DNA of 40,822 nucleotides from Methylobacteriaceae bacterium (GCA_019242655.1 JAFAVH010000115.1:1-40822); one strand, 5' to 3'. Shown: positions 3 to 40,822, numbered from the stretch's first letter. Made by a program: numbers and translations. Notes: generated by a model not told the origin, from the sequence alone.

Positions 3-290
3 GATCTGGGCGAGGTCCTGGCTTTGCTTGATGGCTTCATCGGGCTCGATACGGGCACGACGCATTTTGCCGGGCGGGTCGGCGTGCCGACGCTGGCGCT
101 GTTCGGCACGGCGCACGATCCGAGGGAATGGGGGCCGGTGGGCGACAAAAGCGCTTGGGCCGCGATGGACGCGCCGTGTCATCATTGCTCGATCTCCGAA
201 GCCCGCTTCTGCGCCCTCGATGTCGCGTGCATGAGCAGCCTTCGACCGGAACAGGTTTGGCCGCTCGTCGAGCAGCATTTGCTTCAATGA
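3..290 (+). CDS. Glycosyltransferase family 9 (heptosyltransferase-like), C-terminal fragment; the 5' end lies outside the window
   Basis: The frame is open from the window edge. It reads FIGLDTGTTHFAGRVGVPTLALFG (GT9 C-terminal donor-binding signature), then a four-Cys tail PCHHCSISEARFCALDVAC. Stop TGA at 288..290. Confidence 0.8.
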   Translation, partial: DLGEVLALLDGFIGLDTGTTHFAGRVGVPTLALFGTAHDPREWGPVGDKSAWAAMDAPCHHCSISEARFCALDVACMSSLRPEQVWPLVEQHLLQ

Positions 291-7051: not shown

Positions 7052-9121
7052 TTGATCGGCTCCTCGCGTCGCGCATTTCGAGATGTGGTCGTTCGCGCCG
7101 ATGCCGCTCGCGACGAAGGGCGGTTCTTGGAGGCCGCCGTCCTCTACCGGGAGGCCAGCAGGCTGGTGCCGGGCCACGCTGGCGTGCGGGTTCAGCGCGG
7201 CAACATGCTCAAGGATTGGGGCGATCTAGCTGGCGCTGAAGCGAGCTACCTCGAAGCCAAGCGTCTTATCCCCAATGATCCTGATCTCGCGATGCAGCTT
7301 GGCCATCTCTACAAGATTGGCGGCCGTCTCAAGGAGGCAGTCGCCTCTTACGAGCGCGCAATCTTGCTTCAGCCCGGTTGGGAGGAGCCGGTTCGAGAGA
7401 TTGAGGGGCTGCGCAAGCATGGCTGGCGCGGCGTCCGTAGCGCGGCGGATCTGCACGAGTTCGTGCCGCCTGCTGCCGAGCCTGCAGCGGGCGACTATTC
7501 CGCGGCGCGATCAGCGGCGGAGGTGGCGCGCCTCATTCCGGCGCTGGCGCCGCGCCGCTACCAGGACATGTTGTTCCGGCACCATGACCACATTGAGGTG
7601 CGTAAGCTCGGCCGCCAGGAGGTGGGCTACTGGGGCAAGCGACGAACGCTGCGGGGCGTAGAGGCGCTCCACGGCTTTTGCATCTCTGAGGTCCCGATCG
7701 TCGAACTCGAAGTGCTGCTGAACGGAATTGCGATCCACCGCGCTCCGATGTCCGGCGGCTACGCACTCACGTTCGAGCAGGACAAGGAAAGGATCAAGAA
7801 GTACGTCTACAACGTTTGGATCGACTTCTCGCTCTTCGCTTACGGCCTTCATGTGATCGAGCTGCGCTTTCTCGACGCGGATGAGGAGACGCGCTCCTTC
7901 CACGACGACGTGGTGATAGCCGAGCCGGTTACCGAGGGCGAGTATCCGGAATCGGACGGTCTCGTTTCGGTTTCGCACGATGATCCGCGTTCTGTTGAGC
8001 AGCAAATCCGCGAGCGACCGAGCATGGTTCGCTCGGCGAAGCGCGCCTTGTTCCCGAACGGGGTCCGCAACGTGCTCGTCATGCGCACCGACCAGCTGGG
8101 TGACATGGTTGCGTCCATTCCCGCCGTGCAGCGCCTGCGCGAGCTCTTTCCCGACGCACGTCTCGTCGGCCTGATGACGCCGGCGAACGTCGAATTCGCG
8201 AACAGCCTGGGCTTGTTCGACGAGGTGATCGGCGTCGACTTTCCCGATGATCGCCTCGAACGCCGCCGCCTTATGTCACTTGACCAGCAGCAGGCGCTTC
8301 GGCAGCTCCTCAAACCTTATAAGTTCGATATTGCGGTCGATCTTGCGCGGGCAGGGGTCTCGCGCGATCTGTTGCTGCTGACCGGCGCACAGTTCAAATA
8401 TGGCGTCGGCGGCGAGGACTGGCCATGGCTGTCATCGCACTTCATCTTCAACACCCACGACCGATGGACCAACCACGACATGACGCCCCACAGCACGAAG
8501 GTGCTGGCGCTCGTGGAGGCTCTCGGCACGCTCATCGATACGCAGGCGCCGATCATCCGCAGGCAGGACCTGTCGCGCGATCGGCTCCGCGGCTACGGCG
8601 TGCTGCCGACTGATCGTTTCGCGGTGCTGCACATGGGCGCCCGCATCGGCTTCAGCCGCTGGCCATATCATGCCGATCTCGTGGAGATGATACTGGCCGA
8701 GACGGACCTCAAGGTCGTGATGATCTCGGAAGACGCGGAGGTGCGCAACCATCTGTCGGCTGAAATGCTCGCCAACTACCGCGTGCTGTTGCTCGACCGC
8801 CGTCTCCCGTTCGACGATTTTGACGCATTCCTCTCATTCGCCTCAGTGATGGTCGGGAACGACTCCGGCCCGAAGCATCTCGCATCTCTGCGCGGAACGC
8901 AGACCGTCACGATCTTCAGCGCGCGCATCAATTGGACCGAGTGGGGCCAGGAAAATGTCGGCGCTATCATCAGCCGGCGGATACCCTGCGCGGGTTGTGC
9001 GATCCTTCACGAGCCCGAGGATTGCGGCAAGGAATTCGCCTGCGTCATCGACATCAAGCCTCGCGAGGTGTTTGAGACGGTGCTCGGGCTGCTTCCATTG
9101 GCAGAGGAATTCAAACAGTGA
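7052..9121 (+). CDS. Three-domain TPR / beta-rich middle domain / GT9 heptosyltransferase-like protein, paralog 1
   Basis: 689 aa. N-terminal TPRs (AAVLYREASRLVPGHAGVRVQRGNMLKDWGDLAGAEASYLEAKRLIPNDPDLAMQLGHLY...). Middle block has RGVEALHGFCISE...KYVYNVWIDFS. GT9 core has VLVMRTDQLGDMVASIPAVQRLRELFPDARL and MVGNDSGPKHLASLRG. Four-Cys tail at 8987..9043. Confidence 0.85.
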   Translation: MIGSSRRAFRDVVVRADAARDEGRFLEAAVLYREASRLVPGHAGVRVQRGNMLKDWGDLAGAEASYLEAKRLIPNDPDLAMQLGHLYKIGGRLKEAVASYERAILLQPGWEEPVREIEGLRKHGWRGVRSAADLHEFVPPAAEPAAGDYSAARSAAEVARLIPALAPRRYQDMLFRHHDHIEVRKLGRQEVGYWGKRRTLRGVEALHGFCISEVPIVELEVLLNGIAIHRAPMSGGYALTFEQDKERIKKYVYNVWIDFSLFAYGLHVIELRFLDADEETRSFHDDVVIAEPVTEGEYPESDGLVSVSHDDPRSVEQQIRERPSMVRSAKRALFPNGVRNVLVMRTDQLGDMVASIPAVQRLRELFPDARLVGLMTPANVEFANSLGLFDEVIGVDFPDDRLERRRLMSLDQQQALRQLLKPYKFDIAVDLARAGVSRDLLLLTGAQFKYGVGGEDWPWLSSHFIFNTHDRWTNHDMTPHSTKVLALVEALGTLIDTQAPIIRRQDLSRDRLRGYGVLPTDRFAVLHMGARIGFSRWPYHADLVEMILAETDLKVVMISEDAEVRNHLSAEMLANYRVLLLDRRLPFDDFDAFLSFASVMVGNDSGPKHLASLRGTQTVTIFSARINWTEWGQENVGAIISRRIPCAGCAILHEPEDCGKEFACVIDIKPREVFETVLGLLPLAEEFKQ

Positions 9122-11178
9122 CGCTGGCCTCGTTCCTGCGAGGCCGGGGAGACCGCGCCAATCCGCTCAGAACACTGGGACGAGACATGCTTCGCCGCGC
9201 GGATCAGGCGCGAGATCGTGGCGCGCATGCCGAGGCGGCCATCCTCTACCGCGAGGGACTGCGCCTGCTGCCGCATCGCGCCGACATCCACGTTCAGTGC
9301 GGTAACATGCTAAAGGAATCGGGCGACTTCGGGGGGGCCGAGATCCACTATACCGCCGCCGCTCGTGGTCTGCCGGAGGATGCCGACTTGGCTCTCCAGT
9401 TCGGGCACCTCTACAAGAGCGCCGGTCGCCTGGATGACGCAGTCGATGCGTATGAGCGCGCGTTGCGGCTCAAGCCTGGCTGGGACGCTCCCGTGCAGGA
9501 GCTTGCAAAGCTCAAGGGTGCTGGGTGGATCGGCGGTCTCGCCGCCGACGCCGCTGCTCAGCCGATACTCCGGAAGGAGGCAAGTGCGTCGCGACTTCCG
9601 ATCGGCTTGGGCGCAAGGCCTCTTACCGAGCTGCTTCGCAATCATGCAGAGGAAATCGAATTCCGGCGCCTGGGTAGGAAGGAGCGGACTTATTGGGGCG
9701 TGTTGCCGGTGCTTCGGGGCGTCGAGGCGATCCGCGGCTTCTGCATTTCCGAGGAACCGATCCTCTCGATCGAACTGTACCTCAATGATGAGCTGATTTA
9801 TCGCGCACCGCCTGCCGCCAGCTTTCCGCTAGTCCTGGAACGTGAAAATCCACGGTTGCGCAAATATGTGTTCAACATTTGGATCGACGTGTCCGGCTTC
9901 GTGCGTGAGCGGCATGAGCTTGAATGCCGTGCTCGGCGGGCGAGGGGCGGCTCGATCTCACGCCGCGAGCAGCTCTGCATTGATGCAGTTCCCGAACGCT
10001 CGCTGCTTCCCGAAAGCGACGCGAGGCTGAAGGGGCGCGATCGGCGCATCCCGCTATCGCTCGACGCGCAGATCAATGCGCGTCCCAGCCAGATCAGACC
10101 GGCAGGGCAGCCGCTGCTGCGGGAGGGGCCGCGCTGCATCCTGGTGCAGCGTGCGGATCAACTCGGGGATCTCGTGGTGTCGGTGCCGGCGCTGCGCCGC
10201 CTCCGATCGATGTTCCCAGAGGCTCGTCTCGTGGGGCTCGTCTCAAGGGCAAACGCCGAGCTCGCCGGAAGCCTTGGCCTCTTCGATGCTGTCCTGACGA
10301 TCGACTTCCCGCTCGTCCTGCCCGAATCGCGGCGCGTGCTCTCGACCGAGGGGTTCACGTCGCTTCAGGCGCAGCTCAAAGGCTTCGTCTTCGATCTCGC
10401 GATCGACCTCAGCGAAGCAGAATCGTCACGATTGCTGTTGCCGCTGTCGAACGCTCCGGTTTTGGTCGGCTACCGCAGCGGGCAGCTGCCCGGCCTGGAC
10501 ATCGACATATCGGCGAACACCTACGACAAAGCGAACGATCATGAGATCGTGCCGCACGCCAAGAAGGCACTGGGTCTGATCCAATGGCTTGAGGTTGTGC
10601 TGTCCAACGAGCCGAACATCGCTCGGCGCGATGACCTTGATCAGGCCCGCCTCGCGGATTTCGGACTGGTGCCGGGCACCCGCTTTGTGGTTCTTCACGC
10701 GGGTGCGCGTGCCAGGTTCAGCCGGTGGCCGCATTATCTCGAGTTGGCACATATCTTAGTCGAGAAGACGGATCTCCACGTTGTGATGATGGCCGTCGCC
10801 GGCGAGGAGCCGCCGATTCCGGATGCGCTGGCGCGATCTGGTCGTTTCCAGATGATCAGCCGGTTGCTCGACTTCGATGATTTCGATGCGCTGCTCACCT
10901 TCTGCGCCATATTCGTTGGTGACGACTCCGGGCCGAAGCACCTCGCGTCGCTCCGCGGCGCCAAGGTCGTGAGCGTGCAAACCGCGCGAAACAACTGGAT
11001 GGAGTGGGGCCAGATGACGGCGGGAAGCATCATCACGCGTAGCGTGCCATGCGCCGGCTGCCTCATCCAGAATGACACCGATGCACAGGAATGCGGACGC
11101 GACATCGTCTGCCTCACCGGCATAGCCCCGCATGAGGTGTTCACGGCGATAGAGCGGCAATTGGCGCAAGGCTCTTAA
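9118..11178 (+). CDS. Three-domain TPR / beta-rich / GT9 heptosyltransferase-like protein, paralog 2
   Basis: 686 aa. The GTG start overlaps the upstream TGA (GTGA at 9118..9121). The architecture and motifs are colinear with paralog 1: RGVEAIRGFCISE, KYVFNIWIDVS, ILVQRADQLGDLVVSVPALRRLR, FVGDDSGPKHLASLRG, PCAGCLIQNDTDAQECGRDIVC. Confidence 0.85.
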   Translation: MTLASFLRGRGDRANPLRTLGRDMLRRADQARDRGAHAEAAILYREGLRLLPHRADIHVQCGNMLKESGDFGGAEIHYTAAARGLPEDADLALQFGHLYKSAGRLDDAVDAYERALRLKPGWDAPVQELAKLKGAGWIGGLAADAAAQPILRKEASASRLPIGLGARPLTELLRNHAEEIEFRRLGRKERTYWGVLPVLRGVEAIRGFCISEEPILSIELYLNDELIYRAPPAASFPLVLERENPRLRKYVFNIWIDVSGFVRERHELECRARRARGGSISRREQLCIDAVPERSLLPESDARLKGRDRRIPLSLDAQINARPSQIRPAGQPLLREGPRCILVQRADQLGDLVVSVPALRRLRSMFPEARLVGLVSRANAELAGSLGLFDAVLTIDFPLVLPESRRVLSTEGFTSLQAQLKGFVFDLAIDLSEAESSRLLLPLSNAPVLVGYRSGQLPGLDIDISANTYDKANDHEIVPHAKKALGLIQWLEVVLSNEPNIARRDDLDQARLADFGLVPGTRFVVLHAGARARFSRWPHYLELAHILVEKTDLHVVMMAVAGEEPPIPDALARSGRFQMISRLLDFDDFDALLTFCAIFVGDDSGPKHLASLRGAKVVSVQTARNNWMEWGQMTAGSIITRSVPCAGCLIQNDTDAQECGRDIVCLTGIAPHEVFTAIERQLAQGS

Positions 11179-12507
11179 ATGGTCCGCTCGCCCGAAAGCA
11201 AAGCCTTGGCGGATGCCGCGATCACGGGCTGGCGAAGCATGACCGACGCGAAGCCGCAACTGCTCCGCGCGCTGCTCCGCGCGGATCGCGCCGACTCGCG
11301 CCTCCAGGATCTGCTCGATTGTGCCGAGCTGGCCGCGGAACTGAACCTGCCCAAGCAAGCTGCGGCGCTTTATGGGCTCGTGATCCTGCAGCTTGGCACT
11401 AGGCGCGGTGTTGCCGTGATGACGGCAGTCAACGCCCGCCTGCGCCTCTGGACGGAGGCTGTGGTTCATCCTGTAGCGGCATCGCCATCGGCATTCCCGG
11501 CCGATATTGCGATCTCGCAGATCGTGGGTTTTGCCGGCTTGGGCATCGTCGCGCCGGCGATCCCGACCGACCTCGGCCAGCTACTGCCCGCCGCCGCCGT
11601 ACCGCCGCCTACCTTGCCGCCGCCGCTGTCGGCCAAGATCCCGCCAGTTGCTTCGCAAGCGGCTGATATCCTGCGGCTCATGCCGGAGGCTATGCTGGCC
11701 GGCTCGGGGTGGTCGCGCGACCTGCGGACGCTGACGCCCCGTCTCATACAGCTAGCCGTGCCGCCTCTGGCCGAGCGGATCAATGCCGATGCCGCGCAGC
11801 TGGTGGAGCTGCTTGTGCTGCGAAAGCTGCAGGAATTCGTCTCGATCAACAGCGACCTGCTCGCGGCCGAGGCAGACCGAGTGGATCCGTTCGAATGGGC
11901 TGCGGATCTCGATCCTGCGGCGTTGGGACCTTACTTCTCGCGCGCACGGCTGCTCTTTCGCACAGCGCGGGACGTCTTCTCGCTCTACGATGCCGCGAGC
12001 GCAGCAGGCGGGGGCGCCGCGGGCTTCGAGAGCTGGTGCCTCATTGCTTCCGCGCAGCTCCCGGACTCGATGCTGGAGGATCTGATCGACGAGCTTGGAG
12101 ATCGCGGTATGGCGACCGTCCTCACCCTGCTGTTAGCCCGCGCTGCGCGAGACGTCCGCGTCGAAAAGCCGCAAGGATTGGTGTGGAAGATCCGTGATGC
12201 AGCGATCGACCTCGGGGAGGGGGATCTTGCGATCCGGGCGCAGGCGCTCGTGGTCCGCTGGCGTTGGTACGATCCGAACGAACGCATCATCCTCGGCGAC
12301 ATTGCGGCGACGTTCAGTGCGCGTACCGCCGCCGGCGCGGCGTATGAAAGCGTCGGGCAGGTGGCGTCGGATCACCGTCAGGCTCGGGAACGGCTCGCGA
12401 TGCTCGCTGCCGGATCAATCAAGCCTGTGACGCACGGCTATGGCTCGTCTGCCGGGCGAGCGCAGATGCGACGGGCACGCGCCGCCGCACTCGCGAGGGG
12501 CGCCTAG
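11179..12507 (+). CDS. Hypothetical Ala/Leu-rich protein, no family recognised
   Basis: 442-aa ORF. Its ATG directly abuts the upstream TAA (TAAATG at 11176..11181). Probably helical repeats; no catalytic motif seen. Confidence 0.6.
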   Translation: MVRSPESKALADAAITGWRSMTDAKPQLLRALLRADRADSRLQDLLDCAELAAELNLPKQAAALYGLVILQLGTRRGVAVMTAVNARLRLWTEAVVHPVAASPSAFPADIAISQIVGFAGLGIVAPAIPTDLGQLLPAAAVPPPTLPPPLSAKIPPVASQAADILRLMPEAMLAGSGWSRDLRTLTPRLIQLAVPPLAERINADAAQLVELLVLRKLQEFVSINSDLLAAEADRVDPFEWAADLDPAALGPYFSRARLLFRTARDVFSLYDAASAAGGGAAGFESWCLIASAQLPDSMLEDLIDELGDRGMATVLTLLLARAARDVRVEKPQGLVWKIRDAAIDLGEGDLAIRAQALVVRWRWYDPNERIILGDIAATFSARTAAGAAYESVGQVASDHRQARERLAMLAAGSIKPVTHGYGSSAGRAQMRRARAAALARGA

Positions 12508-12553: not shown

Positions 12554-13086
12554 GTGGAAGGATGCGCTGAGATCGCGGAACGCCAACTGGTCGATCCGCC
12601 CTCAGGCGCCGCGGTTCTGGCTTACGATCCGCAACGGAAGGTGGCGATGCTCATCTCGGAAATGCGGCCGCCCGTCATGATGGCTCGCCGGCACGATCTT
12701 CTCGAACTCTTCGCTGGCGCGGTTGATGATGGTCGCTCGCCCGGCGAGTGCGCCCTTTCCGAGGCGATGGAAGAGGCCGGTCTGCGTCTAAGCGAACTCC
12801 TACCGGTGGGGGAAGTCTGGATGTCACCTGCCTTCTCAACGGAGCGCGTCAGCCTGTTCCTGGCCGCTTATTCGAGGGAGGATCGGGTCGCGGCCGGCGC
12901 CGGTCTCGATGAAGAACAGGAGCACATCCGCACAAGGGAGATCAGCCTTGCCGAGCTGGCGAGCATGCACGCGCGTACCGATTGCGGGACGCGAAGACGC
13001 TGATCCTCGTGCAGACGCTCATGTTGATGCACCCGGAGCTGTTCGCCGCCGCCGCGCCGCCATCCGACCGCGAGAAGGTTACTTAA
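12554..13086 (+). pseudogene. Nudix hydrolase (ADP-sugar pyrophosphatase-like) interrupted by a frameshift near 12970..12985
   Basis: A degenerate Nudix box GAVDDGRSPGECALSEAMEEAGL lies at 12716..12784. The ORF stops at 13003. The conserved family C-terminus RLRDAKTLILVQTLMLMHPELF continues in another frame from 12979 to TAA 13084..13086. Confidence 0.6.
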
Positions 13087-13993
13087 GTAGATCGGCGTAG
13101 ATGTTACCTAAAACGGCGTCTCTATCTGCTCCAGGCCTTCGGTCGGGGATCGCATGCGGCGAAACGCTGCCGCCCTTGCCATTGAACACGACTTCGCGAT
13201 GACCGACCAGTTCCGCAATTTCCTTGAGGCTGGCGTGGCTGAACAGCCCCATATGGCCCCAGCGAAGCTCTCCTGTGTATACTCCCATCGCGCCGCGGCT
13301 AAAGTCAGAGTTAAATTTCATTGCATGCAGCAGGCTAGGCGTGTTGACCCTATGCCAACAACCCGGCTTAAGCATCCGCCGTGTTTCGGCTAAATACTGG
13401 ATCTGCACAATCTGAGGTGTGTGCTCGATGAGATCTTCATCAAAGATAAAGTCAATGCAGTCATCGGGCACGTCGACACGGTTCCCCATATAGGGAAAAT
13501 TGAAATACCATTCCGGGTGTTGGAGTGCAAAGTCAGGTGCGTTCCGGTCGATGTCAACGTTAAGGAATCCGGGGATCGGTACCTGACCAGCGCCGAAATA
13601 CACTCTGACCGGCTGGCCAGCTGCGCGCAACTCCTCCACCCGCGCGGCGAAACGCTCCATCTCCCGGTCAGGCGTCTGGGCTGTCGCATCAAGCTGCGGA
13701 AGGTCCGTTGGCGAAATCAGCTTAAAGCTCTCCCAAGCGCCGGCGGACGGGCGGTTCACTGGCGCGCTGATGCGATCGAGTTCGGCGCAGAGGAAGAGGT
13801 TATCCTTTTGGAAGGTTAGGAGACCGTCGCGCGTTCCGACGCGGTAGCCTGTTAACGGTCCTTGCGTCAGCACTTCGCCCTCTGACGCGGAATCGAGCTC
13901 GATCGCGTCACCCAAGTCGGCCCACCGCTCTAGCTGCTCAATGCGACCATCTCTCTGAGCCAGCACCGTTCCATGAACACTCAACAGAAGCAT
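13079..13993 (-). CDS. Class I SAM-dependent methyltransferase with a ~120-aa N-terminal non-catalytic domain
   Basis: 304 aa. The C-terminal half has VYFGAGQVPIPGFLNVDI ... CIDFIFDEDLIEHTP ... MLKPGCWHRVNTP (Methyltransf_11/23-like). The N-terminal part contains LFLCAELDRISAPVNRPSAGAWESFKLI. Confidence 0.75.
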   Translation of the reverse strand: MLLLSVHGTVLAQRDGRIEQLERWADLGDAIELDSASEGEVLTQGPLTGYRVGTRDGLLTFQKDNLFLCAELDRISAPVNRPSAGAWESFKLISPTDLPQLDATAQTPDREMERFAARVEELRAAGQPVRVYFGAGQVPIPGFLNVDIDRNAPDFALQHPEWYFNFPYMGNRVDVPDDCIDFIFDEDLIEHTPQIVQIQYLAETRRMLKPGCWHRVNTPSLLHAMKFNSDFSRGAMGVYTGELRWGHMGLFSHASLKEIAELVGHREVVFNGKGGSVSPHAIPDRRPGADRDAVLGNIYADLLK

Positions 13994-17214: not shown

Positions 17215-17787
17215 CGTTATCTCTCCGGTGGCGGAAGGAGCACGTGCCGGAGATAAACGTCAAGCAGAGTCGGAGCGTGTGCTGAGCTATCTGCAGGTGG
17301 CTCTCGCAAGCGCGCGACGGTTTCGCGACAACCCAGTTTATCCCGATACCGTGCATCATGGCGGAAGGTGCTCGGGCAGCCCGATATCAATTGGATTGCG
17401 GACACATCGGGAAAGTGGACGCTATACGGAGCTTAAGCGATGCGCGAGGCAGAGCTTGAGCTGCGTGAGGCAGGCGCCGCGAGGCGATAAGGTCGCCCCG
17501 ACCATCTCTGATCGAGGCGCAGGCGTTGGCATCCCGAAGGACCAGCATGGCTCGTGCGAAGCTTCTATCCCGGCGAGTGGTTGCTGGCGGTTAATCGGTC
17601 ACTGATCAAGCTGAGGAATTTCGCCGCGCCACCGGGCGCGTAGTCGGACAGTGGAGCGCTCTTATCCTTGCGAGGGCGCACCGCGGTACTCTCGACGCAT
17701 AGATAAGTGGGCGATCAAAGCATCGATTACCGATGTCACATTTCCCTGCCTTAAGGGAACATTAACGACGCGGTTGGAGCAGGGGTC

Positions 17788-20490: not shown

Positions 20491-22488
20491 CTAGCCGGCG
20501 CTGCTCTCGCACAAGAGACGAAGGACGGCACCGCCGACCTCCGCCGGGGTGATGAAGCGCATGCAGGCGAAATTCTGACCGCAATCCTCAAACCGGGTCA
20601 GCGCACAGCCCGCGCACGGGATTCGGCGACTGACGATGAGGCCGTCCCCTTCCTGGCCCCATTCGTTCCAGTTCAGCCGGGGCATGTGCACGCTCACCAC
20701 GCGCGCGCCACGTAACGTGGCGACCTGCTTGGGCCCGGAGTCGTTCCCGACGAAGGCATCGCAGAAGGAGAGCAGCGCGTCAAACGCGTCGAACGGGAGT
20801 CGGCCAACCGCATACTTCAAGCGGTCCACGCCGAGGATCTCCGCAGGCACATCGATATCCTCTTCGCTTTCGCTGAGGATGACGATGGTATGGCTAGTCT
20901 CGCGCAGCAGCCACGCGGCCAGCGCGCCGTAACCGTGCCAGCGGTTGAAGCCAAGCCGCGAACCGGCGTGGAGCACGATGTACCGCTCACCCGCAGCGAT
21001 TCCGAACCGCTGCAGCAGGCTGCGCTCGAGATCGGTCCGCGCAACCACCTGCAGCGGGTTGCTGGTCATCGCGCCCAGCCGCTCGATCAGCGCTACGAGC
21101 TTGCCGGAAAGCGGCGTGTTTTCGAGCTCGTTGGCAGGATCGTGGGAGCGGGTCTCGAGTCCGGCATCGAGCCACGGCGTCTCGCGCTCATTGAACCCAT
21201 AGAGGAAGCGGGCGCCGGACAGCCGCAGGAGCGCGCGCGAATCGGCCGTGTCGATAAGGTCGATCGCGAGGTCGAATCGGAAGCGCGCGAGGGTTCCCTG
21301 CAGTGCGCGCTGTTCCGAGGCTGACATCGTACGACGAGCGAGCGCCGGGTCCTCCGGCAGGCGGATCGTGAGGATCTCGTCGAATAGCCGGAGTGTCGCG
21401 GCGAGTTCGGCATTGGCCGCGCTCAGCAGGCCGACGATGCGCGCCTGCGGGAAGAGGGCGCGGAGCCGTCGCAGGGCCGGGACGGATATGACCAGATCGC
21501 CGAGCTGATCGAAGCGCTGCACGAGAATAGAGTCCATCGGGCCGCCAACCACCGAACGGTCCGCCCGACGGATCATGCTGGCGCGCGCGTTAATCGACGC
21601 CTCGACTTCGCCTCGGCCTGGATCGACCACCGCGTCGGAGCTGGGGCACTCGGCCTCGGTTAATGGTTCCCCGATCCACACCATTTCCGTCAGCGCGCGC
21701 GCGATCCTGCCGCCGTGCTCACGGTATCGCAGTTCGAGCGGGCGCCGTCCGCGCGGCGCCGTCGCGAAGTCGTGCCAGATGTTGAAGACGAACTTGGAAG
21801 GCGCTTGCCCGGACGGCGGCGATGACGGCTGGAGATGCACGGATCGCAACAGCTGGCCGTCGAGCAGCAGCTGTACCTCGACCAATGGCGCTGCGCTCAC
21901 GCAATAGCCGCGGATCGCCTCAACGCCGCGCAACACCCTTCGCCCCCACAGGCCGGACACGCGCCTGGCGCCGAGCCGGAAGAGCTGGACATGCTCCCCC
22001 GGACGGGCGGCTGCCGCGACATCGATCGGAAGAAGTTCCGGGAGCGGCACGTCGCCTTCCACGGCATCATCGTTCGCATCGCCTCGGTCGCGAAGCGAAG
22101 ACAGCTCTTTCAGTGCTTCCGGCCAGCCCGGCTGCAGCTCGAGGGCGCGGCCGTAGAACCGCTGCGCCTCATGCACCCGCCCGATCAGCTTGTTGAAATG
22201 ACCAAGCTGGAGTGCGAGATCGGCGTCGTTCGGCGCGCGTTGGAGCGCGGCTAGATAATAGCGCTCGGCACCCGAATAGTCGCCGCTTTCCTTGTGCATG
22301 TGCGCGCATTGAACGATCACGCGCACCCGATCGGGCGTGAAGCGGAGCGCCTCGGCGTAGAGCGCTGCCGCCACCGCGAAGCGGCCATGGTCTCGTGCCG
22401 CGTCTGCCTTGCGCGAAAGCCGTCGCGACATCGCCAGATTACCGTGCCGAGGGAGGCGATCGATAAGCGTGCGCAAGGGGCTCGGCAT
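20491..22488 (-). CDS. Three-domain TPR / beta-rich / GT9 heptosyltransferase-like protein, paralog 3
   Basis: The longest ORF starts at a TTG at 22590 (699 aa). ATG 22488 is preferred because MPSPLRTLIDRLP...RKADAARDHGRF aligns in length and in the PLRTL motif with paralog 2. Motifs: RGVEAIRGYCVS, KFVFNIWHDF, ILVQRFDQLGDLVISVPALRRLR, FVGNDSGPKQVATLRG, PCAGCALTRFEDCGQNFAC. Confidence 0.85.
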   Translation of the reverse strand: MPSPLRTLIDRLPRHGNLAMSRRLSRKADAARDHGRFAVAAALYAEALRFTPDRVRVIVQCAHMHKESGDYSGAERYYLAALQRAPNDADLALQLGHFNKLIGRVHEAQRFYGRALELQPGWPEALKELSSLRDRGDANDDAVEGDVPLPELLPIDVAAAARPGEHVQLFRLGARRVSGLWGRRVLRGVEAIRGYCVSAAPLVEVQLLLDGQLLRSVHLQPSSPPSGQAPSKFVFNIWHDFATAPRGRRPLELRYREHGGRIARALTEMVWIGEPLTEAECPSSDAVVDPGRGEVEASINARASMIRRADRSVVGGPMDSILVQRFDQLGDLVISVPALRRLRALFPQARIVGLLSAANAELAATLRLFDEILTIRLPEDPALARRTMSASEQRALQGTLARFRFDLAIDLIDTADSRALLRLSGARFLYGFNERETPWLDAGLETRSHDPANELENTPLSGKLVALIERLGAMTSNPLQVVARTDLERSLLQRFGIAAGERYIVLHAGSRLGFNRWHGYGALAAWLLRETSHTIVILSESEEDIDVPAEILGVDRLKYAVGRLPFDAFDALLSFCDAFVGNDSGPKQVATLRGARVVSVHMPRLNWNEWGQEGDGLIVSRRIPCAGCALTRFEDCGQNFACMRFITPAEVGGAVLRLLCESSAG

Positions 22489-22648
22489 TGGCCTAGGGCG
22501 TAGTTGCCGCGCCTGAGGAGAGGAAGACAAATCATGTTGGGCAATCGGTGTCATCGCGCGAGCGGTAGTCGGGGCATCGAGTTGCTGCAATCATAGGCTG
22601 CAAACCCGCGCAGCCGCATCCTTGCGTTGCAATTCGTCGGGCGATCGC

Positions 22649-22778: not shown

Positions 22779-23762
22779 ATGATCCTCGTCACCGGCGCAG
22801 CCGGCTTCATCGGCTCCAACATCGTCGCCTCGCTGAACGAGCGCGGGCGGACTGACATCGCGGTGTGCGATCGCTTCGACGACGCCAATAAGTGGCTCAA
22901 CCTCGCCAAAAGCCTCTTCGTCGATGTCGTGCCGCCCGATGCGCTAGCGGCCTGGCTCGCGAGCGGTCCCAAGCTCAGCGCTGTGGTCCACATGGGGGCC
23001 ATTTCGGCCACGACGGCGAGCGATGGCGACGCAGTCATGGAGACGAATTTCCGCCTTTCGCTACGATTGCTCGATCACTGCACCGCGCACGACGTGCCTT
23101 TCCTCTATGCGTCTTCCGCGGCGGTTTACGGGGACGGCGATTGCGGGTTTGCCGACGATATCACGCCAGCGGCGATCGAGAAGCTGCGCCCGTTGAACCT
23201 CTATGGCTGGAGCAAGCGGCAGTTCGACTATGTGGTGGCCGATCGAGTCGCCCGCGGCGCGAAGCTGCCGCCTGCCTGTGTCGGCTTCCGCTTCTTCAAC
23301 GTGTTCGGCCCCAATGAATATCATAAGGGCGAGATGCAGAGCATCGTTGCCAAGATCGCGGGACCGATCGGCCGCGGCGAGCGGATCACGCTCTTCAAGA
23401 GCCATCGCGAAGGGATCGGCGATGGCGATCAGCGGCGCGATTTCGTCTACGTAAAGGACGCGGTGGACGCGGTGCTGAGCTTTCTCGGGCGGGAGCGGAT
23501 CGCGGGCATCTTCAACATCGGCACAGGAAGTGCGAGAAGCTTCCGGGAGCTTGCCGAGGCGGTCTTCAATGCCTATCAGCGGCCGAGCGCGATCGACTTC
23601 GTCGACACACCGCTGTCGATTCGCGACAAATATCAGTATTTCACGGAAGCGTCGCTCGATCGTCTTCGCCAAGCCGGATGCACGACCGCCTTCCGGCCGT
23701 TGGAGGTTAGCGTCGCGGACTATGTCGGAAGTTATCTTCGGAGCGGCGATCCCTATCGCTGA
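22779..23762 (+). CDS. hldD: ADP-L-glycero-D-manno-heptose 6-epimerase
   Basis: 327 aa. MILVTGAAGFIGSNIV Rossmann start, SSAAVYG, LNLYGWSK (YxxxK), FRFFNVFGPNEYHKG, RDFVYVKD; length and order are typical of HldD/RfaD. Confidence 0.9.
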   Translation: MILVTGAAGFIGSNIVASLNERGRTDIAVCDRFDDANKWLNLAKSLFVDVVPPDALAAWLASGPKLSAVVHMGAISATTASDGDAVMETNFRLSLRLLDHCTAHDVPFLYASSAAVYGDGDCGFADDITPAAIEKLRPLNLYGWSKRQFDYVVADRVARGAKLPPACVGFRFFNVFGPNEYHKGEMQSIVAKIAGPIGRGERITLFKSHREGIGDGDQRRDFVYVKDAVDAVLSFLGRERIAGIFNIGTGSARSFRELAEAVFNAYQRPSAIDFVDTPLSIRDKYQYFTEASLDRLRQAGCTTAFRPLEVSVADYVGSYLRSGDPYR

Positions 23763-24231
23763 GTTCGGCCTCGATGCCATCGCCGGCGTTGTCGCGCGGG
23801 GTCACGGCGTGGCGTCGGGCACGGCGCGCGATCGGCGCTTTCCAAACGGGACGATCCGGCTGCAACTACCCTTCTTCGAAGGCGCGATAGCGAACTTCCA
23901 GGCCTATCTTGGTGGATCGCCTTTTGCCGGCACGATCAACATCGCCGTCGACACGGAGGCGGTCGTGATCATGCGCCCTGAGTTCCGGCTGCCGGAGGTG
24001 CGCTGGACCGACGTCTTCGGGCCCGAGACTTTCTACCTTTCAGCGGCCCAGCTCGTGCACGGCGATGGGCGTTATCCGGTGTTCCTCTACATGCCTGATC
24101 CGGCAAGCAAACCCGATCATCACCAGCCGCGGCAGGTCGTTGAACTGCTTGCGCGCCGCTTGCCCGAGGTCAGCTATGGCAACCGTGTGACGCTACTGTT
24201 TCGGCCCGACGCGATTGCGTTCACGCCATGA
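23722..24231 (+). CDS. Small protein resembling the archaeal CTP-dependent riboflavin kinase (DUF120) beta-barrel fold
   Basis: 169 aa from ATG 23722, overlapping the hldD 3' end by 41 nt. GVVARGHGVASG ... LGGSPFAGTINIAVD ... VVELLARRLPEVSYGNRVTLLF parallels the G-V-SG-G-G ... G-P-GTLN-L ... pattern of RibK/DUF120. The assignment is tentative. Confidence 0.45.
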   Translation: MSEVIFGAAIPIAEFGLDAIAGVVARGHGVASGTARDRRFPNGTIRLQLPFFEGAIANFQAYLGGSPFAGTINIAVDTEAVVIMRPEFRLPEVRWTDVFGPETFYLSAAQLVHGDGRYPVFLYMPDPASKPDHHQPRQVVELLARRLPEVSYGNRVTLLFRPDAIAFTP

Positions 24232-26101
24232 GCCTGCGCATCTCGTTGAACACTTCCTCGACCCCGATCAACCGGATGCAAGCGAAGTCCCGGCCGCATT
24301 CCTCGCCGTTTCGCCCAATTCCACAGCCCGCGCACGGCACGCGCCGGCTGATGATCGATCCGGTTTGCTCTTGCCCCCATTCGTTCCAGCCAAGCCGCGC
24401 CATATGGATGCTGACGACCGGCGTGCCGCGCAGTGCGGCGAGATGCTTTGGACCGGAGTCATTACCGACGAAGATGCGCGCCCGGGACAGAAGAGCATCG
24501 AAATCGTCGAATGCGAGTCGCTCCGGAAGCCTGATCAGCCGTTTCGACGGCCGTTCCTGCTGAATGGGATCCTCACCCATCAGGACGACCTGGAGCGCGG
24601 TCCGCTCAATCAGCACCTGTGCCAGCGAAGCGTAGTGCGGCCAGCGGCTGTAAGCCAGCCGCGCGCCGTTATGCAGGACTGCATATTCGGCCGATGCTTC
24701 GATGCCAAAACGTTCGAGCCGCTGCCCACCGAGCCCCCGGCGCGGCAGTATCTCGGCCGCGCCATACTGAGCTGCGATGAGACCGTTGACAAGCGCGAGC
24801 ATCTTGCGCGACGGCGGGATGGTCTCGCGATAGTTCACCGGATCGTGCGCGTTGATATCAAGGCCGGCGGAGAGCCAGGGCGTGTCGCGGTCGCGAAAGC
24901 CATAAAGAAAGGGCGCGCCTGAGAGCTGCAACAGCGGCCGGGAGCCCGCGCCTTCGCCGAGATCTATGGCAATGTCGAAGCGATAACGGTGCAATGTCGC
25001 CGTGAGCGACGCCTGTGCTTCGACGGTCATCGTCCGACGTTCGTCGTGGCCATTGTCCGCGAACGCGCAGGTCACCACCTCGTCGACGAAGTCGAGCGTC
25101 CAGGCGAGCTCGGTATTCGCGTCGCTGACGAGCAGCACGATGCGCGCGTCGGGAAAGCCTGAACGCAGGCGGCGAAGCGCTGGGATCGAGCAGACAAGAT
25201 CGCCGAGCTGATCTGCGCGCTGCACGAGAATGGTGCGCGGCTGCGCAAGCAACGAACGCCGCGCCGATCGGATGACGCTGGTCCGCCCGTTGATCGCCGC
25301 CTCCAGACCGCCGGTGTCCGCTTGCGCCGGCGACACGAGGGCATCCGAGTCCGGGTGATCGGCGGCGGGCGGCGGGGCAATGGTCAGGACGGTGCGATAG
25401 GAGCGGGAGCGCCGACCCTGCTCCGCGAAGCGTAGCTCGATATCCTTGCTGCCGGGCGTCAGCCCCGACACGTCGCACCAGATATTGAATACGTATTTCG
25501 TTCTTGCCGATGCCGGCAGAGGCAGCGCCTGGAGCGGTTCGCGATGGAAAACGACGCCATCGATCAGGACGAGCAGCTCGGCCGCGCTCCCACTGCCGAT
25601 CGCGAAACCATGAATCGCCTCAACTCCGCTGAGGACGCGGGCGAATCCGCTCGCCGTGCGCGCTCGCTTCGCGCCAAGCCGGCGGACATGGACGCCGAAG
25701 CCCGGTTCGCTGGGCTTGCCACTCGCGGCGAGAAGCTCGGGTACAAGGGAAACCGATCCCTCGGCGCATGAATTCGGCTCAGCAGCGGCCCGGAAGCTTC
25801 GAACCTGGCGGGTCAGCTCGGGATTGGTCGGAGCAAGCCGGAGCGCTTGCTGGTAGAGCCGCTCGGCCCCGGCGTCATTCCCCAGCTCGCTATGCATATG
25901 CGCAAAATGGGCCAGGATGCGCGGATCGGCGGGCGCAAGTCGCGTCGCCTCTTCATAAAGGACGCTCGCCGCCTCGAACCGCTGCGCATCGCGTGCGCGG
26001 TTTGCTCGCAGCATCAGCCGATGTGCCATGCCACCTCGCGACAGGCTGGGAAGATAGGACAGCGCGATCCGAACCATCGTCGAGGGCGAGGCTATGGCCA
26101 T
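24221..26101 (-). CDS. Three-domain TPR / beta-rich / GT9 heptosyltransferase-like protein, paralog 4
   Basis: 626 aa. TPRs (AASVLYEEATRLAPADPRILAHFAHMHSELGNDAGAERLYQQALRLAPTNPEL). Also SGVEAIHGFAIGS, KYVFNIWCDVS, ILVQRADQLGDLVCSIPALRRLR, FVGNDSGPKHLAALRG, PCAGCGIGRNGEECGRDFAC. Confidence 0.85.
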   Translation of the reverse strand: MAIASPSTMVRIALSYLPSLSRGGMAHRLMLRANRARDAQRFEAASVLYEEATRLAPADPRILAHFAHMHSELGNDAGAERLYQQALRLAPTNPELTRQVRSFRAAAEPNSCAEGSVSLVPELLAASGKPSEPGFGVHVRRLGAKRARTASGFARVLSGVEAIHGFAIGSGSAAELLVLIDGVVFHREPLQALPLPASARTKYVFNIWCDVSGLTPGSKDIELRFAEQGRRSRSYRTVLTIAPPPAADHPDSDALVSPAQADTGGLEAAINGRTSVIRSARRSLLAQPRTILVQRADQLGDLVCSIPALRRLRSGFPDARIVLLVSDANTELAWTLDFVDEVVTCAFADNGHDERRTMTVEAQASLTATLHRYRFDIAIDLGEGAGSRPLLQLSGAPFLYGFRDRDTPWLSAGLDINAHDPVNYRETIPPSRKMLALVNGLIAAQYGAAEILPRRGLGGQRLERFGIEASAEYAVLHNGARLAYSRWPHYASLAQVLIERTALQVVLMGEDPIQQERPSKRLIRLPERLAFDDFDALLSRARIFVGNDSGPKHLAALRGTPVVSIHMARLGWNEWGQEQTGSIISRRVPCAGCGIGRNGEECGRDFACIRLIGVEEVFNEMRRLMA

Positions 26102-26157: not shown

Positions 26158-27615
26158 TCAGCGCCCGCTGGATGTCGCGACCAGCCGGCTCGTCGAATGG
26201 CCGGCGCTGAGATCGGCGAGCACGACACGACCACCCCGCGCCTGTACGACGTCGGCACCCGCGACCTGCTCGATCGTATAATCGGCGCCTTTGATCAGCA
26301 CGTCCGGCTTGAGCGCCTCGATCAGCTCGCGTGGCGTGTCCTCATCGAAGATTACGACCGCTGCGACACCCTTCAAGGCACCCATCACGATCGCACGCGA
26401 CTGCTCGTCCTGGACGGGACGCGTTTCGCCCTTCAGTCGCTGTACTGACGCATCCGAATTGAGCGCCACGATTAGCCGATCGCACGCGCTCGCCGCCTGC
26501 TGCAGTAGCGAAACATGGCCGGGGTGCAGCAGGTCGAAGCAGCCGTTCGCGAATCCCACCGTTAGCCGTTCGCGCGCCCAGGCCCATCGCAGCGCGACCA
26601 TCGCATCAGGGCTCAGGAGCCGGCCATCTTCGACCCCAGAGGAGACATTCTCAGCTTGGATCGAGCCGGAAAGTTCATCGCAGCTGACGCTCGCCGTTCC
26701 GAGCTTCGAAACGACTATGCCCGCCGCATGATTCGCGAGCCGCATGCACTCGAGCATAGGGAGATTGGCGGCGAGGGCCGCGGCGAGCACGGCGACAACA
26801 GTATCGCCGGCGCCGGAGACGTCAAAAACATTCTGCGCGGCCGTGGCAAGATGGGTGGGGCCACCATCGGTTGGGAAAAAGGACAGGCCCTTTTCCGAGC
26901 GGGTGAGGAGGATGTGGGCGCCCGAAACCTTCTGAGCGCGCGCTGCCGCGGCCGCCGCTTCCTCGTCCGTCTCGCAAGGCAGGCCGGTTGCATCTGACAA
27001 TTCCTTGCGGTTGGGAGTGAGGATCGAGGCGCCGTGGTAGGCGGCGAGGTCCAGGCGCTTCGGATCGACAATGACCTTCTTCGACGAGGATCGCGCGTGG
27101 TCGATCACCGCACGCAGCACGCTGTCGGTACAGACGCCCTTGCCATAATCAGATATAACAACGGCATGGGCATCATCGATCGCCCCCCGGGCCGCTGCGA
27201 TCAACCGTCCCTCGAGGTCGGTCCCTAGCGGCAGCATGTCCTCATGATCGACCCGCACGATTTGTTGATGCGCTCCGATTATCCGCAGCTTGCGGGTCGT
27301 ACGGCGATCGTCGGTCTCTATGATCCGGGAGCAGTCGACTTCCCCCAAGCCGCAGATCGCATCGATCAACTCAGCGCGGACCGAGTCGCGCCCGGCAAGC
27401 CCCACGAGGTTCACACCGACATGCAAGCTCGCCAGGTTAGCCGCGACGTTGGCGGCGCCTCCGGGAACGGAATGCTCGTTCACGACGCGCATCACGGGAA
27501 CGGGCGCCTCGGGCGAGATGCGGCTGACCTCGCCCATCATGTAGCAATCGAGCATGACGTCGCCGATCACCGCAATGCGGCTCGACTGAAGCAGTTCGAC
27601 GGGTGGGTGGATCAC
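26158..27615 (-). CDS. hldE: Bifunctional D-glycero-beta-D-manno-heptose-7-phosphate kinase / heptose-1-phosphate adenylyltransferase
   Basis: 485 aa. The N-terminal ribokinase-like domain has VIGDVMLDCY ... GGAANVAANL ... VFDVSGAGDTV. The C-terminal cytidylyltransferase-like domain has GFANGCFDLLHPGHVSLL ... VIFDEDTP. The GTG start overlaps the upstream stop (GTGA at 27612..27615). Confidence 0.92.
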   Translation of the reverse strand: MIHPPVELLQSSRIAVIGDVMLDCYMMGEVSRISPEAPVPVMRVVNEHSVPGGAANVAANLASLHVGVNLVGLAGRDSVRAELIDAICGLGEVDCSRIIETDDRRTTRKLRIIGAHQQIVRVDHEDMLPLGTDLEGRLIAAARGAIDDAHAVVISDYGKGVCTDSVLRAVIDHARSSSKKVIVDPKRLDLAAYHGASILTPNRKELSDATGLPCETDEEAAAAAARAQKVSGAHILLTRSEKGLSFFPTDGGPTHLATAAQNVFDVSGAGDTVVAVLAAALAANLPMLECMRLANHAAGIVVSKLGTASVSCDELSGSIQAENVSSGVEDGRLLSPDAMVALRWAWARERLTVGFANGCFDLLHPGHVSLLQQAASACDRLIVALNSDASVQRLKGETRPVQDEQSRAIVMGALKGVAAVVIFDEDTPRELIEALKPDVLIKGADYTIEQVAGADVVQARGGRVVLADLSAGHSTSRLVATSSGR

Positions 27616-28802
27616 GATTTGATACCTATTTCGAGCTGATCCCGCGCACCGATCGCTTCGCTGGGCTCGCGAGAAGCAAGTTCGGTAGCAGCGACGAACA
27701 AATGGTAGAGCGTGCTCGCCGGAACATAGTCGACGAGTGGCCGGCGCTTGTCGTCAAGGTGGTCGATCCAGCCTCCGGCGAACGGGTGTCCGACGAAATT
27801 CTCGAGAAGAGTTCCTGCCATCGCTTCTGCCAGTTCGCGTGAGCCCGGAGCGCCGGCGCGCTCCTGAGCGACGGCAGCCTTGATCGCTTCGGTATGCGGC
27901 CAGACCCTGTGCGAGGACTTGATGATGACGCGATCGGTGTTGAGCTCGTCATGGATTAGGCCGTGGTCGGAGATCCCGCAATCCCGCGCGGTCGCGTGTA
28001 GGCGCCCGGCGCGCAGCGTCGTGTCCGCTTGGCAAAGGCGATCATATTCGGAGAGGAGCCAGCACCATTCGAAATGATGCCCCGGCTCGAACACATGCGC
28101 ACGCTTGACATCGGGGTGAAACGTCCAAGCTTCGTCGAAATGCTCGATAAGGTACTCGTCTCGCACCAAGCGGCGATCCAGCAGCTCGACTAGCTGGCTG
28201 GCGCGCTCGCGATAGCCGCGCCCCGGCGCAGCCGCTTCGAGGGCAAGATATGCCTCGAGAAAATGCATGAGCGGGTTCTGGCGCTTGGTGCGCACGGTAA
28301 TCGGTGCCGCATCGTAGAGACCGCCGTGGGTCACATCGGTGAGCTCGCTATCGATGAAGCCGATGATCCGTTCCGCGAGCACCAGCAGCGCGGCATCGCC
28401 GGTCAGTTGATACACCCACGCTATCGCTAGCAGCACGAATGCGTGGGTATAGGCGTCGCGGTCCGTCGATAGCGGTCGTCCTGCGCCATCCACCGAGAAG
28501 ATGAAGGAGGAGGTCCTGCCGTTGCTCGAGCCGTAGGTCCTCAGCAACGACTCCAGGGCTCTCGAGGCGAGCTCCGCACCTGGCTCGAACCAGCCGAGCT
28601 TCGCCGCATGCGCGTACACGTAGATCTGGCGGGACTGCACCATCGCGCGCTGGGGCACGTCCAAGGGCCGACCCGCGAAGTCTAGACGCTCATGAAAGCG
28701 ATGGCGCACTGTATCGAACCCACCGCTTGCCCAAAATGGCAGCGCCTCATTGATCACCCATTCTAGATAGACTCGTGCTCGGCCTGCGAGAGCGCCTCTC
28801 AC
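27612..28802 (-). CDS. AGE-superfamily (N-acylglucosamine 2-epimerase / aldose-ketose isomerase-like) enzyme
   Basis: Motifs: LPFWASGGFD ... RFHERLD, RAMVQSRQIYVYAHA, DAYTHAFVLLAIAW, NPLMHFLEAYLAL, EPGHHFEWCWLL, RVWPHTEAIKA, ASTLYHL. GTG 28802 overlaps the gmhB stop (GTGA at 28799..28802). The longest ORF runs to 28862. Confidence 0.8.
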   Translation of the reverse strand: MRGALAGRARVYLEWVINEALPFWASGGFDTVRHRFHERLDFAGRPLDVPQRAMVQSRQIYVYAHAAKLGWFEPGAELASRALESLLRTYGSSNGRTSSFIFSVDGAGRPLSTDRDAYTHAFVLLAIAWVYQLTGDAALLVLAERIIGFIDSELTDVTHGGLYDAAPITVRTKRQNPLMHFLEAYLALEAAAPGRGYRERASQLVELLDRRLVRDEYLIEHFDEAWTFHPDVKRAHVFEPGHHFEWCWLLSEYDRLCQADTTLRAGRLHATARDCGISDHGLIHDELNTDRVIIKSSHRVWPHTEAIKAAVAQERAGAPGSRELAEAMAGTLLENFVGHPFAGGWIDHLDDKRRPLVDYVPASTLYHLFVAATELASREPSEAIGARDQLEIGIKS

Positions 28803-29407
28803 CCTATCTCTCCGAAGGCATGTTCGGCCAGCATGCTTCTGACGCTCGCCGCGAGATCGCACGCGTTCGTCTCCACCAGCAGAGCTGGAACGCCCGCGGC
28901 CGCGGCGGCATCGAGGTCGCTCTGCCGGTCGCCGATCATGAAGCTTCCTTCTCGGCGGATAGGGAGATCGCGCATCGCCTGCATGAGCATGCCGGAACCC
29001 GGCTTGCGGGTATCATGCTCTATCGCGAAGGCCGGAATCGTGCCGTCCGGATGATAGGGGCAATAGTAGAATCGATCGATGCGAGCGCCCTGCTCGCTAA
29101 GCGTTCGCAGCATCTGGTCATGAAAGCGTTCCACATCCTCGACCCCGTAATGGCCGCGCGCGATGCCCGACTGGTTCGTGACGACGATCACGAAGTAGCC
29201 AGCGGCATTGAGGAGGCGAACGGCCTCGACGGCGGTGGGGGTGAACCGCAAGTCTTCCGGCCGGTGGGTGAAGCCCATGTCCACGTTGAGCACGCCGTCG
29301 CGATCGAGGAACGCGGCGGCACGCGCGTCCTGTTCGGCATACCGGGCGACCGCCGCCCGATTGGCCGAAGGAAGGCCACGGTGCCGCGCGCCAAGTTCAG
29401 GCGGCAT
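28799..29407 (-). CDS. gmhB: D-glycero-beta-D-manno-heptose-1,7-bisphosphate 7-phosphatase
   Basis: AAFLDRDGVLN (HAD motif I), VIVVTNQSGIARGHY, CPYHPDG, RKPGSGML, FMIGDRQSDLDAA. The start overlaps the kpsE stop by 11 nt. Confidence 0.88.
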   Translation of the reverse strand: MPPELGARHRGLPSANRAAVARYAEQDARAAAFLDRDGVLNVDMGFTHRPEDLRFTPTAVEAVRLLNAAGYFVIVVTNQSGIARGHYGVEDVERFHDQMLRTLSEQGARIDRFYYCPYHPDGTIPAFAIEHDTRKPGSGMLMQAMRDLPIRREGSFMIGDRQSDLDAAAAAGVPALLVETNACDLAASVRSMLAEHAFGEIG

Positions 29408-33270: not shown

Positions 33271-33396
33271 GATTGGCGCATAGCAGCGCCCCGAGGAAGG
33301 AGTAAGCCGCCGTGGCCTGGCGGCGACCTGATTGTTGCCGTGCACCGCGTAAGAGTGGATAGATGCCGCCGTCGCATTCCGGAGGATGGACAAGCG

Positions 33397-34553: not shown

Positions 34554-40822
<6,269 letters not shown>

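Follow-up and report, generated by a model that had tools for sequence, protein, structure and literature searches.

Tetratricopeptide repeat–Ig-like–GT9 proteins of an alphaproteobacterial capsule-type locus, probable heptosyltransferases of a surface polysaccharide

To our knowledge, the glycosyltransferases (GT) of family GT9 are known almost only as heptosyltransferases of the lipopolysaccharide (LPS) inner core and of autotransporters, and in the literature searched GT9 has not previously been tied to capsule assembly. The LPS enzymes WaaC and WaaF are single-domain proteins of 326-348 amino acids (aa) in the PDB, the size contrast that an earlier reading of the present DNA from the sequence alone (the sequence-only reading) had drawn correctly. 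Here, we describe four GT9 proteins, paralogues 1 to 4, encoded in a 40,822-nucleotide stretch of DNA from a Methylobacteriaceae bacterium (GCA_019242655.1 JAFAVH010000115.1:1-40822), hereafter the window, in which the GT9 domain is preceded by a tetratricopeptide repeat (TPR) module and an immunoglobulin (Ig)-like domain. In our view, the four enzymes probably act together to make a capsule or other surface polysaccharide rich in heptose, with export through an ABC-transporter pathway of the Kps type.

Fusions of TPRs with catalytic domains have been described from kps-type loci for the TagF-like enzymes Cps3D and Cps7D and for TviD and VexE (PMC11666461, PMC8760489). Cps3D dimerises through its TPR domain, which also touches the neighbouring catalytic domain (PMC11666461), and in the Vi system TviD relies on its TPR region to associate with the membrane and to bind TviE (PMC8760489). 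The catalytic domains of these enzymes are TagF-like, GT4 or SGNH, whereas those of the paralogues are GT9, and the TPR module of the paralogues has only 3.5 repeats, tethered and unpacked in the model, against 9-14 or more helices in the TPR capsule enzymes. By analogy, the paralogues would work most like these TPR-bearing capsule enzymes of kps-type loci.

The four paralogues align colinearly and are 40-44% identical to one another in pairwise tblastn comparisons (624-696 aligned columns, E-values 1e-115 to 1e-174), a likeness far beyond chance; paralogue 4 is shorter by about 34 residues, which corresponds to one TPR. In Pfam searches, TPR families matched residues ~15-130 of all four proteins, and Glyco_transf_9 (PF01075) scored 37.9-61.4 bits against a cut-off of 22. 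The NCBIfam heptosyltransferase I/II/III models covered residues ~340-680 from end to end, while the status of a WaaC, WaaF or WaaQ equivalog was not reached (24-55 bits against NCBIfam cut-offs of 134.6-185.3). The four colinear three-domain copies and the GT9 assignment of the sequence-only reading are thus borne out by Pfam and NCBIfam, by tblastn and by the AlphaFold2 (AF2) model; both the TPR and the GT9 domain were found in the domain searches that it had suggested, and structure prediction gave an Ig-like middle domain. No transmembrane segment was predicted, the 19-residue Kyte-Doolittle average being at most 1.65.

Common to the paralogues are the motifs K[YF]V[YF]N[IV]W.D, DQLGD[ML]V, G[ND]DSGPK[HQ][LV]A.LRG and LRGVEA[IL][HR]G[FY]; those quoted in the sequence-only reading are present, although the last deviates in paralogue 4, which has LSGVEA. 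Multi-copy families often hold pseudo-enzymes, and paralogue 3 has K-Q-V-A in place of K-H-L-A after the DSGP motif, as might be expected if some of the paralogues were catalytically dead scaffolds kept for complex assembly. However, the Gly-Asp, H-x-G-x-R, D-S-G-P-K and Cys4 positions are unchanged in all four copies, and we find this explanation barely credible.

With regard to gene starts, the sequence-only reading began paralogue 3 at the ATG at 22488, which is possible, but the TTG at 22590 is equally so. At 9118-9121, a GTGA joins the GTG of paralogue 2 to the TGA stop of paralogue 1, with GAGG 9-14 nucleotides (nt) upstream. The overlap had been taken to couple the translation of the two genes; it is present in the sequence, but the automatic gene call for the same metagenomic contig begins paralogue 2 at the ATG at 9187, and the coupling is therefore only plausible.

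The structure of paralogue 1 was modelled by AF2 from a 44-sequence alignment, with a mean predicted local distance difference test (pLDDT) score of 88.4. TPR and OGT matches dominated PDB searches whether the query was the full protein or the 44-sequence profile, and the query was trimmed to the GT9 part. The closest Foldseek matches of the catalytic part were WaaF (1PSW, E-value 4e-13), a Veillonella GT9 protein (3TOV) and WaaC (2H1H), with TibC lower (E-value 1e-9); OGT-type proteins, including XcOGT, were also matched by Foldseek, via the layout of TPRs followed by a GT-B domain. As sequence identities were in the range of 15-20% and the sequences few, relatedness was judged by profile-profile scores (hhalign). 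The full length of the GT9 part matched WaaF (probability 96%, E-value 2e-9, 317 columns), WaaC was matched with a probability of 73%, whereas the match to TibC was limited to the C-lobe, with a probability of 7.5%. Both D351 of the N-lobe Gly-Asp, at the position of WaaC Asp13, and D604-S605-G606 are invariant in the 44 sequences; the two motifs align to the G-D and D-T-G of WaaC, and the catalytic motifs are present in more than 104 of the 110 open reading frames (ORFs) of the family. By profile, GT-B fold and catalytic motifs the paralogues are members of GT9, and no GT41 profile matched them in Pfam or NCBIfam. A GT9 profile made from the paralogues and the E. coli enzymes also weakly matched the chloroplast NDH protein PnsB1 (7eu3_6/9grx_1, E-value 5e-4).

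The paralogues thus share with WaaF and WaaC the full-length GT-B GT9 domain, the Gly-Asp and D-[ST]-G motifs and, as we presume from the hldE, gmhB-like and hldD genes in the same locus, the donor ADP-heptose. They differ in being twice as long, with an added TPR module, Ig-like domain and Cys4 knuckle, and in being encoded in a kps-type locus by a family found largely in LPS-less Sphingomonas; because of this setting, the acceptor should not be Kdo2-lipid A. The only names under which homologues are listed are 'glycosyltransferase family 9 protein' and 'ADP-heptose:LPS heptosyltransferase'. Sphingomonas has no LPS, and therefore the second label is wrong as to the acceptor in Sphingomonas.

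The genomic setting carries the proposal of a capsule. The genes of the minus-strand run GT4-kpsM-kpsE-gmhB-AGE-hldE-paralogue 4 are closely packed, adjoining without gaps or overlapping from stop to start; hldD is found between paralogues 3 and 4, and paralogues 1 and 2 belong to a plus-strand run of FkbH-like, WcbI-TPR, unknown, GT90, paralogue 1, paralogue 2, 442-aa unknown and NUDIX genes (Table 1). The gmhB-like protein, which scores best with the GmhB models, passes the NCBIfam cut-offs for HAD-IIIA and the histidinol-phosphatase domain. The gene content marks the island as a capsule locus of the ABC-transporter type, and a role in capsule assembly is favoured because the paralogue genes are operonic with kpsM/kpsE and with ADP-heptose synthesis.

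Table 1. Coordinates of paralogue domains and of genes in the window
Feature	Position (nt)	Strand	Details
Paralogue 1	7052..9121	+	689 aa
TPR module, paralogue 1	7052-7426	+	residues 1-125; Pfam, AF2
Disordered tether, paralogue 1	7427-7585	+	residues 126-178; AF2
Ig-like beta-sandwich, paralogue 1	7586-7921	+	residues 179-290; AF2
Conserved linker, paralogue 1	7922-8065	+	residues 291-338; AF2
Two-lobe GT9 GT-B domain, paralogue 1	8066-9118	+	residues 339-689; Pfam, AF2, Foldseek
Cys4 knuckle, paralogue 1	8984..9043	+	PCAGC-x8-C-x5-C; Cys646, 649, 658, 664
Paralogue 2	9118..11178	+	686 aa from GTG 9118; alternative start ATG 9187
Paralogue 3	20491..22590	-	699 aa from furthest TTG 22590; possible later starts 22554 or 22488
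Paralogue 4	24221..26101	-	626 aa; closes the GT4-kpsM-kpsE-gmhB-AGE-hldE run
hldD (ADP-glycero-manno-heptose 6-epimerase)	22779..23762	+	TIGR02197, 372.8 bits (cut-off 274.6)
hldE (heptose-7-P kinase / heptose-1-P adenylyltransferase)	26158..27615	-	NF008454, 469 bits (cut-off 521); rfaE_dom_I and rfaE_dom_II above cut-offs
AGE-family (GlcNAc 2-epimerase-like) enzyme	27612..28862	-	PF07221, E-value 7e-56
gmhB-like heptose-1,7-bisphosphate phosphatase	28799..29407	-	GmhB models best, just below cut-off: NF006506 153.7/178, TIGR00213 141.4/149.6 bits
kpsE-like	29397-30575	-	TIGR01010, E-value 4e-75, 253 bits, below cut-off 437.5
kpsM-like ABC-2 permease	30610-31425	-	PF01061 match
GT4	32635-31418	-	
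Conserved 442-aa neighbour	11179..12507	+	first base directly after the stop of paralogue 2
Three WcbI-like proteins	2313-3905, 14302-15894, 33007-34467	+	two with clear C-terminal TPR arrays, one with weak TPR_8
FkbH-like gene	328-2256	+	opposite end of the island from the polyketide synthase
FkbM methyltransferase	15985-17214		
Large polyketide synthase (DH-MT-ER-KR-ACP visible) beside aminotransferase class I/II	34554-40470	-	N-terminus of the synthase towards window end
Distant GT9 gene end, cut by window edge	3-287 (as a feature, 3..290)	+	C-terminal 95 codons; runs off left edge

As proposed here, the paralogues would be soluble cytoplasmic GT9 transferases that depend on ADP-heptose, with the donor supplied by the hldE, gmhB-like and hldD products of the locus. 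The old paralogues probably differ from one another in the acceptor to which they add heptose or in the linkage that they form, and the finished polymer would be exported by the Kps-type system encoded in the locus. Through its TPR module, on a flexible tether of ~45 residues, each enzyme may dock to the others or to further components, such as the 442-aa neighbour, the TPR-bearing WcbI-like modifying enzymes or the membrane export machinery. The Ig-like sandwich and the Cys4 knuckle, with its presumed metal, could pack on the catalytic domain and serve in structure or in oligomerisation.

In the AF2 model, residues 1-122 form seven helices (3.5 TPRs), and the pLDDT score falls below 50 at residues 129-148 and 170-175 within a low-confidence tether of about 45 residues (129-175). 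The sequence of the TPRs closely resembles the consensus of OGT (E-value 1e-24). As in OGT (GT41) and FlmG, the TPRs are N-terminal and followed by a GT-B domain, so the resemblance to OGT pointed out by the sequence-only reading holds for the layout; it ends there, since the catalytic domain is GT9 instead of GT41, the seven helices and the disordered tether do not make up an unbroken TPR superhelix that runs to the active site, and the genomic context is that of a polysaccharide and not of a protein. In the model, the TPR module looks like a docking module rather than an OGT-like substrate tunnel, because it is too short and too loosely tethered for the latter.

The middle block was predicted to be a beta-sandwich (residues 180-290) with pLDDT scores mostly above 90, and when modelled alone it still scored 86.7; judging from these models, it is a real folded domain. 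It had no match in Pfam at E-values up to 1, and its fold matched only generic Ig/E-set domains (CopC, RhoGDI and FnIII; best E-value 3e-4, TM-score 0.3-0.4), with neither a carbohydrate-binding module nor the TibC barrel assigned by the fold search. When its profile was run against 1.84 billion representatives, only 316 proteins were retrieved, most of which have the same architecture. Some of these relatives are 950-1200 aa long, with longer N-termini or an upstream GT4: P0126 is a GT4-Ig-GT9 protein, and others among P0163, P0134 and P0184 have an N-terminal extension of ~500-600 residues that includes TPRs. Such an upstream GT4 fusion is typical of multi-domain polysaccharide synthases. 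The profile also gave weak repeat matches in Big_7 Ig-domain proteins.

The Cys4 knuckle is located in the C-lobe, after the last strand and before the C-terminal helix; its motif C-x2-C-x8-C-x5-C is invariant in the 44-sequence alignment and present in 107 of the 110 family ORFs. The knuckle was compared with WaaF, WaaC, WaaQ and WaaU of E. coli K-12 and with TibC of enterotoxigenic E. coli (ETEC) H10407: its four cysteines coincide with Cys339/342/358/370 of TibC and are absent from the four Waa enzymes. In TibC, the four cysteines form an 'iron finger' that is needed for oligomerisation (PMC4358343). Searched on their own against the PDB, the last 105 residues gave no meaningful match. The shared knuckle would be an evolutionary link between the LPS-type and the protein-modifying branches of GT9.

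The likeness to TibC raises the question of whether the paralogues are protein O-heptosyltransferases, in which the TPRs recruit a protein and the GT9 domain heptosylates its Ser/Thr residues, with a chemistry like that of TibC and Aah and a use of TPRs like that of OGT and FlmG. The TPR-plus-GT-B layout with its Foldseek matches to XcOGT and OGT is compatible with this, FlmG is a TPR-GT-B enzyme that can glycosylate flagellins, and the bacterial autotransporter heptosyltransferases (BAHT; TibC and Aah, 4RAP) likewise have a beta domain before the GT9-related domain and a four-Cys knuckle at the same place in the C-lobe, which the E. coli Waa enzymes lack. The beta domain of TibC is a flattened barrel packed on the catalytic domain, and the best fold matches of the beta-sandwich of the paralogues are generic Ig/E-set domains. 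Yet the knuckle spacing of the paralogues is shorter than the C-x2-C-x15-C-x11-C of TibC, and their N-lobe is canonical and WaaF-like whereas that of TibC has a reduced four-stranded sheet. TibC has no TPRs, and its gene directly abuts tibA in ETEC H10407, whereas no autotransporter gene adjoins the paralogues. By N-lobe, overall relatedness and genomic pairing, the paralogues are not BAHT enzymes.

Further evidence also speaks against protein substrates in general. A scan of the large ORFs in the window found no autotransporter, flagellin or other obvious protein substrate, and no substrate gene was identified in the related loci examined, of which only L012 is annotated. The paralogue genes are operonic with, and recur beside, capsule export genes; the TPR module consists of just seven helices on a disordered tether; the alignment is full-length with WaaF and confined to the C-lobe with TibC; and four diverged paralogues per locus better suit several glycosidic linkages than one protein. 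We therefore regard protein heptosylation as quite improbable. Of the two roles that the sequence-only reading had offered for the TPRs, the scaffold of a multi-enzyme complex fits better than protein heptosylation, but the partners at which it hinted fare less well: the WcbI-like proteins of the island do carry TPRs, as it had stated, with three such proteins in the window, but they were rejected as conserved TPR partners because none of 42 related loci has a WcbI-TPR gene near the family members. These 42 loci, each at least 15 kb long, also underlie the other counts of neighbouring genes, and ADP-heptose, kps and WcbI-TPR genes were counted within 10 kb of family members.

The family extends well beyond the window. 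The nearest homologues are 62% identical, and there are more than 370 clusters of homologues, mostly from Sphingomonas. A scan of species-representative genomes gave 64 loci, with 1-4 family copies per locus within 22 kb, in Sphingomonas, Acetobacteraceae (Gluconobacter, Gluconacetobacter, Komagataeibacter, Acetobacter and Ameyamaea), Caulobacteraceae, other alphaproteobacterial metagenome-assembled genomes and one Pararobbsia. Orthologues of paralogue 1 in other genomes are 55-62% identical to it, compared with 40-44% for the paralogues within the window, and for paralogues 2-4 the best matches (44-60%) are only a few points above the next-best paralogue. Because outside orthologues are closer than the paralogues in the window, the duplications look old, most clearly for paralogue 1. 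No paper on the TPR-Ig-GT9 family was found in the literature searched, which covered capsule, Sphingomonas ADP-heptose, acetic acid bacteria and GT9 polymerases; the family is conserved, coherent and uncharacterised. The 'GT9' matches in PMC13171606 proved to be GT99.

The capsule-type neighbourhood recurs in part. ADP-heptose genes (hldE/gmhB/hldD) are present in 26 of the 42 related loci and kpsE/kpsM in 17, and a homologue of the 442-aa neighbour, which had no Pfam or PDB match, is found in 16; the homologue in L012 has a weak match to TPR_9 (E-value 2e-4, below the Pfam cut-off). The chromosome of Sphingomonas sp. ASY06-1R has the same order of genes, namely aminotransferase (alpha-oxoamine synthase)-GT4-kpsM-kpsE-(gmhB)-AGE-hldE-three paralogues-homologue of the 442-aa neighbour, with gmhB placed by tblastn. 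Several observations weigh against a heptose-rich capsule, however. Neither heptose nor kps genes were found in 12 of the 42 loci, the ORFs scanned in the 40.8-kb window did not include kpsT, kpsD, kpsC or kpsS, which may lie outside it, a heptose-containing capsule is not described for these taxa in the literature searched, and the Cys4 knuckle together with a beta domain N-terminal to GT9 recalls the protein-modifying BAHT enzymes.

A further alternative is that the paralogues are builders of a glycolipid core, which attach a small number of heptoses to a lipid-linked primer while other transferases make the bulk of the polymer. The primer could be an aminolipid derived from a polyketide synthase (PKS) and an alpha-oxoamine synthase, a glycosphingolipid or the lipid anchor of the capsule, and the role would resemble that of the LPS inner-core enzymes. 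The closest structural and sequence relatives, WaaF and WaaC, are indeed LPS core enzymes, PKS and aminotransferase class I/II genes flank the locus, an aminotransferase gene is also adjacent in L001 and L012, and the GT4 and GT90 of the locus could make the polymer. On the other hand, an ADP-heptose pathway and up to four heptosyltransferases would be a large investment for a primer, and the PKS/aminotransferase pair occurs in only 1-2 of the 42 related loci. We consider this explanation rather unlikely, and it differs only in degree from that of a heptose-rich capsule.

A more far-reaching version of the capsule proposal, which we put forward as a doubtful possibility, is that the paralogues represent the first family of GT9 capsule polymerases: TPR-tethered, metal-finger enzymes that oligomerise in the manner of BAHT and turn ADP-heptose processively into a heptan-type capsule in Alphaproteobacteria, among them the LPS-less Sphingomonas, on an anchor that might be a PKS/alpha-oxoamine-synthase-derived aminolipid and not Kdo-lyso-phosphatidylglycerol. 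If GT9 enzymes do assemble capsules, the use of ADP-heptose would be extended to this process, the blanket annotation as 'LPS heptosyltransferase' would be corrected in bacteria that have no LPS, and another case would be added to the TPR-organised cytoplasmic capsule machineries. ADP-heptose is an agonist of innate immunity, and its production in Alphaproteobacteria associated with plants, lichens and insects may be of wider relevance.

As to the remaining genes of the island, its accessory set as a whole presumably resembles that of the Burkholderia pseudomallei wcb capsule cluster, and the PKS, aminotransferase and FkbH-like genes form a set that we take to be reminiscent of Burkholderia wcbR/wcbT. 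The PKS, the alpha-oxoamine-synthase-like aminotransferase and the FkbH-like protein could make an aminolipid anchor or a substituent of the polysaccharide. In the window, as in 18 of the 42 related loci, the AGE gene is placed between hldE and gmhB. No gmhA was found in the window, and a search with one GmhA query found gmhA in only three related loci (L054, L020 and L057), exactly those with hldE and without the AGE gene. Going by this gene pattern, the AGE-like enzyme may stand in for GmhA, or its product may be a heptose epimeric at C2. Weak methyltransferase-domain matches were seen in genes with no other assignment at 13079-13993 (minus strand) and, in the Sphingomonas counterpart L012, at 8335-10011 (minus strand) and 17590-19074 (plus strand); the presence of methyltransferases in addition to FkbM suggests O-methylated sugars.

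The GT9 piece at the left edge of the window had been counted by the sequence-only reading as a 3' fragment of a further family copy. It is instead the edge-cut end of a distant GT9 gene, which is only 27% identical to the paralogues and carries the same C-x2-C-x8-C-x5-C motif. Its nearest full-length relative in the fetched loci is a 412-aa GT9 protein (L057:8091-9329), and because this relative has neither TPR nor Ig-like domain, the piece is on the evidence neither a decayed copy nor a demonstrated member of the three-domain family; a decayed fifth copy was ruled out by the truncation at the edge, the low identity and the single-domain nearest relative. Between the two groups of paralogues, the segment 17788-20400 holds a DUF535 gene (17788-18390) followed by several short ORFs that have no family match, and the G+C content falls to 0.53 at 18-19 kb, compared with ~0.63 elsewhere in the window; the segment may be an insertion or the junction of two gene blocks.

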